In this document: in pieces, positions 581 to 5,771 of the stretch
How positions within the stretch are numbered: the stretch's first letter is position 1
Layout of the letters: each line of letters opens with the position of its first letter
Virus genome (UHGV): UHGV-0363594
Source: a virus
Strand: one strand, 5' to 3'
DNA length: 7,651 nt
Program-made: the position numbers and the translations under genes
The notes under the pieces: generated by a model
The model's database searches: none
The model's input: only the letters and a program-made list of their open reading frames with translations
Told to the model about the DNA's origin: nothing

Positions 581-994
581 TCAGATGGTTTTCAGTATGC
601 GATCGATGTCGCCGTCATCGCCCTGGTTTCTGCCATCGTATGCCATGCCAGCTGATACGGCTTGCGGGCTGTGCATGTCCATAAAGTTTTCAAAGGCTGC
701 GGTAAGCTCTGGTGCAACCTTTGGGCGCTCCTGCTCTATGGTCATGTTCAGGATTTCACGAGCATTATCGACGCTAATACATGGCACGTTTGCCATTGCA
801 CGTAACAGCGGCTGATAGTCTTTATGCTCATGAAGCGCCATAATCGCATCAGCGCGCGGCTTGTCCTGTTCTTCCAGTTTGTTGAGTTGATATACGGCCT
901 CGTAGGTTGATAAACCTCTGTCAGCCATTGCCCGCGCTTCTGCTTTAAATTTACTCGCCAGCGGTAGCGCCATGATGCTTTCATTCGTTGCCAT
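581..994 (-). CDS. Hypothetical protein (137 aa), last gene of the capsid operon; acidic C-terminus
   Basis: ORF with a G-rich Shine-Dalgarno (AGGGGAA, 5-nt spacer) immediately after the stop of the decoration-protein gene; followed by an intrinsic terminator. No family recognised by eye. Confidence 0.6.
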   Translation of the reverse strand: MATNESIMALPLASKFKAEARAMADRGLSTYEAVYQLNKLEEQDKPRADAIMALHEHKDYQPLLRAMANVPCISVDNAREILNMTIEQERPKVAPELTAAFENFMDMHSPQAVSAGMAYDGRNQGDDGDIDRILKTI

Positions 995-2615: not shown

Positions 2616-2642
2616 AGTAAGAAATTCCTCTTTGACTTAAAA

Positions 2643-2699
2643 AATCATAACTGGATGTTCATCCAGTTATGATTATAATCATGATTGCATTTTGTGCAA
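2643..2699 (-). promoter_or_regulatory. Candidate sigma70 promoter of the capsid operon with an overlapping 32-bp palindromic operator
   Basis: On the minus strand: -35 TTGCAC (plus 2694-2699), 16-nt spacer, -10 TATAAT (plus 2672-2677). The palindrome AATCATAACTGGAT-GTTC-ATCCAGTTATGATT (2643-2674, 14-bp perfect arms) spans the -10 and the predicted transcription start. A second small inverted repeat TTGCA-TTTTG-TGCAA (2686-2700) overlaps the -35. Confidence 0.5.
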
Positions 2700-2780
2700 T
2701 GATATTGAGTTGCGTTGCAAATTATGAAATGATTATCCCGATCATGTGTGTCAGTGCACCAAAAAAAACCTCATATGCAA

Positions 2781-2819
2781 AAGCCCGATAAGCCCCCTCT
2801 GACCTTATCGGGCTTTTTT
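2781..2819 (+). terminator. Intrinsic terminator-like hairpin with T-run, strongest on the plus strand (possibly bidirectional)
   Basis: Stem GCCCGATAAG (2783-2792) / CTTATCGGGC (2804-2813), 11-nt loop, followed by TTTTTT (2814-2819). Four A precede the stem, so a weak minus-strand terminator is also possible. No protein-coding gene on the plus strand ends upstream of it. Confidence 0.5.
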
Positions 2820-2994
2820 ATCTGCCTGCAAAGATGTCGAACAAAAATTAACCACAATCATCATCTTTTTTGCATCAAAATAATTAAAAACAATCACTTA
2901 CGCACATGATGATGATGACGATAAAATCAAAAAAATGCGCTTCTTTCCGCGCCTCCCGCCCCGTGTTCAGGCCCACCCCGCCAGGAGGACCCGT

Positions 2995-3016
2995 AAAAAA
3001 GCCGGATTGCTCCGGC
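2995..3016 (-). terminator. Rho-independent terminator after ssb (minus strand)
   Basis: Hairpin GCCGGA-gcaa-TCCGGC (plus 3001-3016) followed on the minus strand by 6 T (plus A-run 2995-3000), 17 bp downstream of the ssb stop. Nearly identical to the terminator at 551-574. Confidence 0.75.
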
Positions 3017-3032
3017 TTCTGTCACTCGTTGC

Positions 3033-3455
3033 TTAAAACGGTATGTTATCCCCGTACGGATCATCGTTACCCGCCTGTTGTTTTGCCCTGTTCAGTGCGT
3101 CAGTAGCCTGGCCCTGCTGGCCTTTTTTACCACCTGGTCGCGCCGTTCTGGCACTGATTACGCTGTCAGCGATAACCTGCCACCCCTGCCGCGTTTCTCC
3201 GTTCTGCCCAGTCCACTGGCTGATCTGCATGTTACCCGCCACGCTCAGGAGTTCACCCTTGCGGTGCCTTTCCAGTGCTTCGGCCTGTCTGCCAAATGCG
3301 ATGACCGATAGCCATAACGTCGCCTGCCCATCCTGCGCCTGACTACATGGCAACGATACCGCCATACGTGCCAGCGTCATTGGTGTGCCCTTGCTGGTCT
3401 GTTTTACCTGCGGGTCGTCCACCAGCCGCCCGTAAGCTGCTATCTGTGCTGTCAT
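3033..3455 (-). CDS. ssb: Single-stranded DNA-binding protein (SSB), 140 aa
   Basis: The N-terminal two-thirds has an OB-fold SSB pattern (GRLVDDPQV...; W..VIAFGRQAE.....KG). A Gly/Gln-rich linker is followed by an acidic tail ending DDPYGDNIPF, matching the canonical SSB C-terminus (...DDDIPF). Strong SD GGAGAGGTGG. Confidence 0.9.
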   Translation of the reverse strand: MTAQIAAYGRLVDDPQVKQTSKGTPMTLARMAVSLPCSQAQDGQATLWLSVIAFGRQAEALERHRKGELLSVAGNMQISQWTGQNGETRQGWQVIADSVISARTARPGGKKGQQGQATDALNRAKQQAGNDDPYGDNIPF

Positions 3456-3730
3456 GATTCCACCTCTCCGGTTTTAACGTTGATGGTTGTTACCTGTTCC
3501 GCTTCGGCAATCTCCCGCTCTGTCAGCGTGGCAAAATTTGCCGCCGTCGTGGTCATGAATGCGCTTATCAGTTCGGGATGTGCTTTCGCGTATCCTTCCC
3601 CCGCGTGGCGGTCTATCGTTCTGATTGCCACCTTTAAAGCGTGCTCTGTCATGTCTAACGCGCGATATTTCGGTTCTGTTCTGTCTCTGCGTTTTTTGAG
3701 TGATTTGTTAAATCTTCCTGATGTGTGCAT
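3452..3730 (-). CDS. Hypothetical protein (92 aa) translationally coupled to ssb
   Basis: ORF whose stop overlaps the ssb start (ATGA); SD-like GAGGGT upstream of the 3730 start. Basic N-terminus. No family recognised. Confidence 0.5.
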   Translation of the reverse strand: MHTSGRFNKSLKKRRDRTEPKYRALDMTEHALKVAIRTIDRHAGEGYAKAHPELISAFMTTTAANFATLTEREIAEAEQVTTINVKTGEVES

Positions 3731-3775
3731 TTTTATTTTTACCCTCGTGTTTAAAAAGTTTTAGGTTGTGGTGCA

Positions 3776-4004
3776 CCTCCTCTACCTCTCTACCTAATCA
3801 TCTTTCATGTCAGTAATGGCGCGGCTTTCAGATGGGTAGAGGGCTTTCGTGGCCCTCTACCCATCCTCTACCCGCCCCTCACAAACGATCTTAATCATGG
3901 TAGAAGAGGTAGAGAGGTTTTATTAGCCTTCTACCTAGCCCTCTACCCACTTATCATGTTGAATAATATGCGTTTATTTCATTCAGGTAGATGGGGTAGA
4001 GGGC
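3776..4004. repeat. Iteron array, putative origin of replication: at least 10 copies of the core GGTAGAG / CTCTACC in both orientations, flanked by AT-rich stretches
   Basis: Copies at about 3779-3786, 3787-3794, 3834-3844, 3852-3862, 3864-3873, 3899-3909, 3908-3917, 3927-3936, 3938-3948, 3986-3994 and 3994-4004. Includes a perfect inverted pair GGGTAGAGGGC-tttcgtg-GCCCTCTACCC (3834-3862). AT-rich tracts at 3751-3765, 3955-3984 and 4005-4025. No plausible ORF. Lies directly 3' of the primase/helicase gene. Confidence 0.6.
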
Positions 4005-4016
4005 TTTTACAAAAAA

Positions 4017-5771
4017 TTATAAAAACGCGTCACAATCATCAGTTGTAATTGCGTTGGTCTGCGTTACTCCCTTAACTCTCCGCGTAATATATTCATGTCC
4101 GTAAACTTTTGCCGCTGGCTTCATGGCCTTGCTGAACTCAGCCACGTTTAGCGGTTTGCTCCTGCCTGCGTATGCCATAAACGCCAGATAGACGCGGTAA
4201 AGGCTGTTTCTGGTCGTGTACTTCACTGAATCGCCACCGCCGCCCATCATCAGGCCGCGTGCTTCCTCCAGAAAATTCAGGAACTGGCAAAACTCAATAA
4301 CCGGATCCGTCTGTTGCTTTATTGCCAGAGCTTCATCACCGTCGCGCTGTTCCAGTAATAAAGCCCGTGCCTTTTCAGGGTCGGCAAAATTAGCCAGCAA
4401 GCGACGGATAATTACGGGGATTTCAGCCGCGACCTTCTCCGGCAAATCCTTGTCTTTTTCGTCCTCCCTTACAATGTTGTCGAACCGGAAAATCACCCGA
4501 CGGCGTGACACACCTCCGGCCCGCTCGGTGAATATCATCGGGTTATTGTTGGTAGCCAGCACCACCGCCCTGATTACCGCCGTAAAACGCTTCTCATATT
4601 TCGGGTTTATTTCCACGGGGTCGCCGCCCGTGATTTTCTTGATGCCCGTTCCTTCGCCTGTATATTTCGGCTGGTCAGCCAGGACGATAAGACGACTCCC
4701 GACAACCTGCGCACGTCCACCAGCATCATCAAGTGAGGTCATTTCAGCGCTTACCGTGTTCTGTTTCCCTGCCAGAAGGCTGGCTATGTGCGTGAATGTA
4801 CTTTTACCGCTACCGCCCTCTCCGGTGGCCTCAATAAACATCTGCCAGTCGTACCGGTTCGCCATAATCATGTACAGCGCGGCACATATACGCATCATCT
4901 TGCGCGGGTCTTTTCCGGCTGCGTGCTCAAGCCATTTATGAAAGTTTGGCGCGTTGTCGCAGATATTCTCCCCTGGTGCTGGTGGCGTGTACTCAATGCC
5001 GTTGTGCGTGGTGATCCAGTTCTCCGGCGTGTGCGGGGAAAATTCCCCCGTTTTCAGGTCAAGCGCACCATTGGCGAACGGCAACAAATCGCCGGACGGC
5101 TCGCCCATTGGTTCGGCAATAACTTTTAACGCTTCCACGGCGTTATTGATTACGCGCTTGCTGAAAGTGGCCCTGTGCTCTGAATAGATCGCCACCATTT
5201 CGCGGCTAAGTTCCATTGTGCTGACCGGACACCATACCCCGCCGCGCCATACGTGAACGATTTCACTTTCAGGATGTACGCAAACGCCATCAAAGCGATC
5301 GGCAAGCAGCTGCGCGCGCTCACTGTCCGCCATCTGCGAAAGTTGCGCCTTTTGCTTTACCGGAAGCTCAATGACCAGACCATCAGAAAGATTCTGGCGC
5401 TCACGGGCCAGATATTCGCGCCAGTTCTGCACCTCCTGGCCGTGCATACCATCAGGATAAAAATTTGCATCCTGTACGCCTGCCGCCGCCAGCTTCTGAC
5501 CAATCGCCTTTATCATTACAGGCGCAAGATATCCGGCCCTGTATATGCGTGCTGATTTTCGGCCTTCCGGCACAATTTGCAGATTATCCAGTTCGGATAG
5601 CTGCTGCTCCCCAAGCCACACAGGAGGCTCATTATCTCCGGCCATACGCGCATCATGTTCCTGCCATTGTTTCGCGTGTGCCCAGGCATCACTACCCGCA
5701 AAAATAATGACTTCTGTTCCTTTGTGTTTTATGCCGCGTGACTGCTGTTTTACGTTCGGTGCCAGTTTCAT
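4017..5771 (-). CDS. DNA primase/helicase (584 aa), phage/plasmid P4-alpha / D5-like type with SF3 helicase domain
   Basis: Walker-A P-loop GEGGSGKST in the C-terminal half, with downstream hydrophobic strand and acidic motif (LIVLADQP) typical of D5/P4-type primase-helicases. The N-terminal segment TEVIIFAGSD may be TOPRIM-like (tentative). Start overlaps the stop of the upstream ORF (ATGA). Confidence 0.85.
   Translation of the reverse strand: MKLAPNVKQQSRGIKHKGTEVIIFAGSDAWAHAKQWQEHDARMAGDNEPPVWLGEQQLSELDNLQIVPEGRKSARIYRAGYLAPVMIKAIGQKLAAAGVQDANFYPDGMHGQEVQNWREYLARERQNLSDGLVIELPVKQKAQLSQMADSERAQLLADRFDGVCVHPESEIVHVWRGGVWCPVSTMELSREMVAIYSEHRATFSKRVINNAVEALKVIAEPMGEPSGDLLPFANGALDLKTGEFSPHTPENWITTHNGIEYTPPAPGENICDNAPNFHKWLEHAAGKDPRKMMRICAALYMIMANRYDWQMFIEATGEGGSGKSTFTHIASLLAGKQNTVSAEMTSLDDAGGRAQVVGSRLIVLADQPKYTGEGTGIKKITGGDPVEINPKYEKRFTAVIRAVVLATNNNPMIFTERAGGVSRRRVIFRFDNIVREDEKDKDLPEKVAAEIPVIIRRLLANFADPEKARALLLEQRDGDEALAIKQQTDPVIEFCQFLNFLEEARGLMMGGGGDSVKYTTRNSLYRVYLAFMAYAGRSKPLNVAEFSKAMKPAAKVYGHEYITRRVKGVTQTNAITTDDCDAFL

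Follow-up and report, generated by a model that had tools for sequence, protein, structure and literature searches.

The DNA considered here, a stretch of 7,651 bp from the virus genome UHGV-0363594 (referred to as the window), carries all of its genes on the minus strand. Its central part is occupied by a replication module, in which the gene of a primase/helicase-like initiator, Pri-Rep, is followed by an intergenic region, a small ORF and an SSB gene:

4017-5771, minus strand: pri-rep, 584 aa, with D5_N, DUF5906 (SF3 helicase) and a Pox_D5 C-terminal domain, the latter match (21.0 bits) lying just below the Pfam cut-off of 21.4
3452-3730, minus strand: ORF of 92 aa, the first gene downstream of the array described below; it matches phrog_1231, which assigns no function
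3033-3455, minus strand: SSB gene, 140 aa, member of the replication module

After the SSB gene follow genes for a major capsid protein resembling lambda E and for a decoration protein resembling lambda D, and then an ORF of 137 aa. The whole element is displayed by a 97%-identical copy in Escherichia coli JNEC-KY203, and locus L001 is an island of about 11 kb, flanked by tRNA-Pro/yejM and yejO, whose genes all share one strand. In the complete island, an integrase, a small HTH regulator, Icd-like genes and DUF4222 are located upstream of the primase-like gene. The att region is the one listed for EcCIATCC25922 and EcCIED1a.1, and the gene order matches that of EcCICFT073 and EcCIATCC25922. 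Integrase, regulator, pri-rep, unidirectional genes, a size of about 11 kb and a specific att site together make up the organisation of a PICI, and judged by its sequence the element of the window is a PICI of the EcCICFT073 family, residing in E. coli at tRNA-Pro.

A dense array of opposed iterons downstream of pri-rep

The intergenic region 3731-4016 houses an array of short repeats, which begins 14 bp past the pri-rep stop codon and which, on the minus strand, is placed 3' of the 584-aa gene and 5' of the 92-aa ORF and SSB. Allowing at most one mismatch, a motif scan with GGTAGAGG gave 13 matches in the window, where 2.81 are expected by chance and where none of 200 shuffles reached this count. 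Eleven of the 13 fall within 3779-4002, five on the plus and six on the minus strand; scaled to these 224 bp, the expectation is 0.082, and the Poisson probability of at least 11 matches is 2.7e-20. The hexamer GGTAGA is invariant in all 11 copies, and the fuller iteron consensus reads GGTAGAGGGC. Numbered from the pri-rep stop codon, the sites and the two other prominent elements of the region are:

3995-4002, plus strand: iteron 1, GGTAGAGG, nearest to the pri-rep stop codon; doublet with iteron 2, 9 bp start to start
3986-3993, plus strand: iteron 2, GGTAGATG
3948-3985: AT-rich spacer between the opposed doublets 1-2 and 3-4, GC about 0.23-0.27; putative melting site
3940-3947, minus strand: iteron 3, GGTAGAGG
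3928-3935, minus strand: iteron 4, GGTAGAAG
3908-3915, plus strand: iteron 5, GGTAGAGA
3899-3906, plus strand: iteron 6, GGTAGAAG, 9 bp from iteron 5
3865-3872, minus strand: iteron 7, GGTAGAGG
3854-3861, minus strand: iteron 8, GGTAGAGG, arm of a perfect 11-bp inverted pair
3835-3842, plus strand: iteron 9, GGTAGAGG, other arm of the 11-bp inverted pair, 7-bp spacer
3811-3832: non-iteron block CAGTAATGGCGCGGCTTTCAG, column identity 0.9-1.0 across 89 distinct arrays
3787-3794, minus strand: iteron 10, GGTAGAGA
3779-3786, minus strand: iteron 11, GGTAGAGG, 8 bp from iteron 10

The arms of the perfect inverted pair are GGGTAGAGGGC (3834-3844) and GCCCTCTACCC (3852-3862), with 7 nt between them. 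A preliminary description of the DNA had reported at least ten motif copies in both orientations within about 230 bp of non-coding DNA, an 11-bp inverted pair with a 7-bp spacer and a position 3' of a primase/helicase gene and 5' of an SSB operon; the eleven copies, the pair and the gene map bear this out. It had also placed AT-rich tracts on the flanks of the array. Such tracts are present, but the most AT-rich one lies inside the array: the lowest G+C content (0.23-0.27) is found at 3950-3989, between the doublets 3928/3940 on the minus and 3986/3995 on the plus strand. The gap between sites 2 and 3 is AT-rich also in the relatives that were mapped, and the tract 3948-3985 is, by analogy, the likely DNA-unwinding (melting) site.

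The 286-bp region was matched in 544 of 5,426 complete E. coli genomes, at a median of one place each and always on the chromosome, and a homologous primase gene adjoins the array at all seven places examined (H1, H22, H28, H29, H39, H50 and H55). A dispersed genomic repeat, which the preliminary description had named as one outcome that would overturn its reading, is thus rejected, the region being present typically once per genome and beside an initiator gene wherever this was examined.

The array is homologous to a tested PICI origin

For comparison, EcCICFT073 was taken from the CFT073 genome. It has the gene order of the window, including homologues of the capsid (c1499) and decoration (c1500) genes, and the two Pri-Rep proteins are 96.6% identical. 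The gap after its pri-rep gene measures about 287-288 bp. It contains about 11 copies of the GGTAGA core, whose distances from the stop codon almost equal those in the window, and the two arrays are homologous site by site; the AT-rich tract and the invariant block at 3811-3832 are common to both arrays. According to the original report (Fillol-Salom et al., 2018, ISME J, PMC6092414), the segment immediately 3' of pri-rep is the origin in this family: a plasmid carrying pri-ori is kept at restrictive temperature, whereas pri-deltaori and deltapri-ori plasmids are not. The same report describes the architecture of PICI origins as sets of iterons on either side of an AT-rich region, and this is the arrangement found in the window, with the opposed doublets 3986/3995 (plus) and 3928/3940 (minus) around the AT-rich tract.

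Taken on its sequence, the array is very probably the replication origin of an EcCICFT073-family PICI. The preliminary description had suggested an iteron-type origin for the adjacent primase/helicase, and the homology to the tested pri-rep-ori segment of EcCICFT073 supports this suggestion. Origin function is transferred here from EcCICFT073, whose iterons differ at positions 7-8, and by this homology it almost certainly applies to the window. The type of origin is therefore one already known, of which the window represents a new specificity allele.

The differences between the two alleles are few. Iteron positions 7-8 are GG in the window and CA or TA in EcCICFT073, EcCIATCC25922 and EcCIIHE3034; the initiator has A544, E545 and S547 in the window, where the same three islands have N, D and G. 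Furthermore, sites 3-6 are two plus then two minus in the window (by ascending coordinate) as against one plus then three minus in EcCICFT073. EcCIATCC25922, which shares the att site of the window's island, and EcCIIHE3034 repeat the EcCICFT073 pattern.

Fillol-Salom et al. (2018) name four "allelic variants" of Pri-Rep which, from three that were examined, comprise at least three grossly different proteins:

EcCICFT073: initiator of the 584-aa type
EcCIRM13514: initiator of the 607-aa type, with P4 iterons
EcCIO42: helicase of the RepA family; in EcCI11128 and EcCI11368, initiators of this type are accompanied by AGTGGGGA iterons

Since the variants named there differ so grossly, the fine-scale switch of iterons and residues within the 584-aa type has probably not been described before. 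In EcCIRM13514 (L206, 7600-7850), the exact P4 iteron GGTGAACA occurs in nine copies, in a layout like that of the window's array. In EcCI11128 and EcCI11368 (L207, 6386-6586; L208, 5641-5841), which have the RepA-family initiator, the AGTGGGGA iterons surround an AT-rich tract that is found at the corresponding place. These RepA-type islands retain the upstream DUF4222 gene, which points to an exchange of the initiator-origin module as a cassette.

The initiator Pri-Rep and its origin-binding domain

Residues 488-576 of Pri-Rep match the origin-binding domain of the P4 alpha protein (1KA8, E 5.4e-6), and the helicase core matches the SaPI5 PriRep (7OLA, E 2e-14). Two stretches of the gene are of importance for what follows:

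4044-4310, minus strand: origin-binding-type domain, residues 488-576, of winged-helix type; homologue of 1KA8; low-confidence model
4131-4142, minus strand: codons A544-E545-F546-S547, start of the predicted third (recognition) helix; class-specific, covarying with iteron position 8

Homologue searches gave nothing beyond fragments and sequences of 98% identity or more, and residues 486-584 were modelled by single-sequence AlphaFold. The resulting model is of low confidence (pLDDT 63) and consists of three helices followed by a beta hairpin, the third helix comprising residues 543-556; a Foldseek search of this model against the PDB gave no significant match. With the third helix at 543-556, residues 544, 545 and 547 are predicted to fall into the initial turn of what is presumably the recognition helix.

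At the other end of the protein, a Pfam search found no primase domain in residues 1-150. P4-alpha-like proteins of about 790-810 aa align to Pri-Rep only from residue 140 or so onwards, and for the first 140 aa the only match is to a PHROG without an assigned function. This part (residues 1-140, encoded at 5352-5771 on the minus strand) is hypervariable: proteins that share at least 95% of their residues elsewhere are 23-65% identical in it.

Iteron sequence and initiator residues covary

From genomes, viral contigs and metagenomes, 192 related loci were collected. When 89 distinct arrays of the close family were compared with that of the window, the GGTAGA core hexamers showed a mean identity of 0.89 and the spacers one of 0.63, a footprint-like contrast with a Mann-Whitney p of 4e-13. 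Iteron positions 7-8, in the same arrays, reached a mean identity of only 0.42 as a result of a switch between two classes.

The iteron sequence covaries with residues of the initiator's C-terminal domain. Proteins with the motif L-N-V-A-[E/D]-F-S-K accompany iterons with G at position 8, of the GGTAGAGG type, and proteins with [N/S]-V-N-[D/E]-F-G-K accompany iterons with A at this position (GGTAGACA or GGTAGATA), never G. The iteron of the AEFS class is GGTAGAGG, that of the NDFG class GGTAGA[C/T]A. The two combinations, A-x-F-S with G8 and N-x-F-G with A8, are concordant in 82 of 83 unique protein/array pairs, with a Fisher p of 6e-23 that ignores shared ancestry. Both iteron classes are found on four different N-terminal backbones. 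Between the window and genes of the EcCICFT073 class, the codon changes are concentrated in a patch, 543-554, where three of them are non-synonymous (544, 545 and 547) and five synonymous; the last 30 codons before the stop, between this patch and the array, are not class-specific.

The recognition-helix codons are only about 115-125 bp away from the array, so simple linkage could yield much of this association; the covariation could thus in part reflect linkage, among pairs that are phylogenetically non-independent. At the single discordant locus, L060 (IMGVR_UViG_3300029303_000153), an A-E-F-S Pri-Rep is found beside an array of the GGTAGA[C/T]A class. It may be a recent recombinant, or may hint at further determinants of specificity beyond these residues.

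Relation to the replicon of phage P4

In P4, whose features were read from the annotated record NC_001609, iterons form two clusters, at 4314-4585 (crr) and 9310-9413 (ori). The crr region (4291-4590) lies directly 3' of the alpha gene; its ten type-1 repeats point in both directions and include doublets spaced at 9 bp. The ori, 4.7 kb from crr, has six repeats, and the two clusters are both needed in cis. The P4 iteron TGTTCACC is the complement of GGTGAACA.

The array in the window shares with crr the bidirectional octamers, the 9-bp doublets and the position directly 3' of the initiator gene, and its Pri-Rep shares with alpha the SF3 helicase core and the homology of the C-terminal origin-binding domain. 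This likeness gives some weight to an alternative in which the array is an auxiliary cis element, which binds the initiator and stimulates replication that starts at a separate origin elsewhere, as the P4 cluster directly 3' of alpha is crr and the true ori is the distant one. However, a motif search for a second GGTAGAGG cluster, which the preliminary description had considered as a crr-like site, came out negative for the window and for the whole of the island in L001. In addition, the pri-ori segment of EcCICFT073 is sufficient to sustain plasmid replication (PMC6092414). Because a second cluster is missing from the island and the homologous segment suffices, a pure crr-like enhancer is improbable. 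Not only crr but also the P4 ori (9310-9413) aligns with halves of related PICI arrays, in scores that are inflated as explained below.

Several features set the window apart from P4. Its iteron differs from that of P4 at four of eight positions, its island has one cluster where P4 has ori and crr 4.7 kb apart, no terminator separates its initiator gene from the array, and its initiator, at 584 aa against the 777 aa of alpha, is without the N-terminal part of the latter. No cluster of GGTGAACA is found in the window. By its iteron, its single cluster and its shorter initiator, the window's array is outside the P4 ori/crr system as this is defined. Both iterons are nonetheless octamers beginning with GGT, within one GGT-N5 family. 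The layout of 11 sites with an AT-rich gap after site 2 persists down to 45% initiator identity as the octamer changes: it is GGTATACA or TGAACACC in the group of 58% identity, and GGTGAACA, with the 11-site layout, in EcCIRM13514, L173 and L009 (45-47% identity). Since the motif belongs to the GGT-N5 family and shares its layout with islands that carry the P4 iteron, it represents a diverged relative of the latter. The preliminary description had proposed a specificity distinct from P4; this holds for the sequence, though not in the sense of an unrelated motif.

The distal half of the L173 array and, when reverse-complemented, the proximal half of the L009 array align with the P4 ori, in each case with the same order and spacing of sites. 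The scores, 62 and 61 as compared to shuffle maxima of 33 and 29, are inflated, since the shuffles did not preserve the shared iteron content. From these alignments, the PICI array looks like two inverted P4-ori-like units. The shared site layout and the exact P4 iteron in EcCIRM13514 suggest that the replication modules of P4 and the PICIs are related. That a three-residue change in the recognition helix has re-addressed some 11 iterons and, jointly, that the PICI origin consists of two inverted P4-ori units, is a proposal we make tentatively, as plausible but still somewhat doubtful.

Further signals in the intergenic region

The non-iteron block CAGTAATGGCGCGGCTTTCAG (21-22 bp) is kept in both iteron classes and its conservation exceeds that of the iterons. 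It is GC-rich and occupies, at 3811-3832, the mirror position of the AT-rich tract in the array; no promoter, host-factor or RNA match was obtained for it. The 45 bp adjoining the start of the 92-aa ORF (3731-3775) are highly conserved as well. Both elements, together with the position of the array 5' of the SSB operon, could be taken to indicate an operator or regulatory region for the 92-aa ORF, SSB and the capsid genes, to which Pri-Rep or another island protein binds. Against this, scanning 3400-4300 for consensus sequences revealed neither a sigma-70-like promoter nor an intrinsic terminator on either strand, and a promoter or terminator reading was rejected for this reason. Gram-negative PICIs are moreover described as unidirectionally transcribed (PMC6092414), and an origin is the better fit for 11 opposed sites that surround an AT-rich tract and co-evolve with an origin-binding domain. 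A purely regulatory function is accordingly very improbable; a secondary regulatory role beside origin function is possible.

With respect to host factors, the IHF consensus has no match in the array and is at chance level overall. DnaA boxes are likewise at chance level, with only two weak one-mismatch matches, located at the edges of the array. An Rfam search of the array region returned two sub-threshold matches only and no family. The strong fold of the single strand (z = -8.9) results from the inverted iterons and provides no evidence for RNA; a structured RNA was rejected.

Comparison with SaPI and classical plasmid origins

The origins of Staphylococcus aureus SaPIs are located directly downstream of the initiator ORF and consist of 6-12 short iterons and an AT-rich region, with at least two iterons on each side of the latter in opposite directions (PMC9371898). 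The C-terminal winged helix of the SaPI Rep recognises the iterons, its binding is specific to the cognate origin, and SaPI Reps self-load, probably as two hexamers (PMC9371898). The window has this type of layout, with 11 sites and opposed doublets around 3948-3985. SaPIs differ from the window's island in the host phylum and in the sequence of their iterons, and the AT-rich tract of the window lies away from the middle of the array, between the second and third of its 11 sites.

Classical iteron plasmids (pPS10, R6K, RK2, F and P1 types) have in common with the window repeated initiator sites beside an AT-rich element. Their origins, however, involve direct repeats of 17-22 bp, a WH1-WH2 Rep, DnaA boxes and the loading of host DnaB, whereas the window has bidirectional sites of 8-11 bp, DnaA boxes at chance level and an initiator that is itself an SF3 helicase. 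The short bidirectional repeats, the chance-level DnaA boxes and the SF3 initiator rule against a classical iteron plasmid origin.

A model for initiation and its implications

By homology with the P4 and SaPI systems, we infer initiator binding, melting and double-hexamer loading at the window locus. Upon induction of the island by a helper phage, Pri-Rep would be made, which from its homology with P4 alpha and the SaPI Rep is expected to be a self-loading SF3 helicase. Its C-terminal winged-helix domain would read the GGTAGAGG iterons, of which up to 11 might be filled, as opposed groups. Helicase rings, probably two hexamers, would then assemble around 3948-3985, this tract would melt and the helicase could load without DnaA. 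The unwound DNA would be covered by the island's own SSB, whose gene is close by on the downstream side. Positions 7 and 8 of the iteron, the latter above all, together with A544, E545 and S547 may set the allele-specific match between initiator and origin.

If this is true, A-E-x-S versus N-D-x-G on a near-identical Pri-Rep backbone would create orthogonal pairs of initiator and origin, and co-resident or competing PICIs would each own a private origin. The allele pair bears on the question of whether satellites sharing a cell keep their origins separate, and two natural alleles on 97%-identical proteins provide a minimal system for studying how a winged-helix SF3 initiator reads its iterons. 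If the idea of two inverted units is true, the replicons of P4 and of Gram-negative PICIs would share ancestry, contrary to the published notion of an origin organisation unique to PICIs. For annotation, the repeat cluster would be entered as the origin of a phage satellite, neither as a regulatory curiosity nor as a new class of element.

Packaging site and head genes of the island

Among the products of the island are homologues of the lambda capsid (E) and decoration (D) proteins, and the island is packaged with the aid of a helper phage, but the probability that the array is a helper-terminase packaging site (cos/pac), or a chance or generic genomic repeat, is negligible, because a perfect lambda cosN lies far away at 507-518, and the motif count is above all 200 shuffles and the region adjoins homologous initiator genes only, in the places examined. 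The cosN, GGGCGGCGACCT, is on the minus strand within 470-560 and has lambda-like flanks (…GTTACG GGGCGGCGACCT CGCGG.TTTTCGCTATTTATGA…). From this sequence it is the packaging site of the island, in agreement with the published functional cos sites of lambda/phi80 type in EcCICFT073.

Between SSB and a 68-aa ORF that precedes the capsid gene, an AT-rich gap of 417 bp (2616-3032, GC about 0.36) contains no convincing ORF; EcCICFT073 has a gene for a perC-family regulator in this place. The 137-aa ORF after the decoration gene (581-994, minus strand) matches phrog_1999, of unknown function; a further, weak match (E 1e-10) is to the head maturation proteases of phrog_53, in their C-terminal part. 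Judging from these matches its product may be scaffold-like, and with the E-like and D-like genes the ORF makes up a partial head module of the lambda type.
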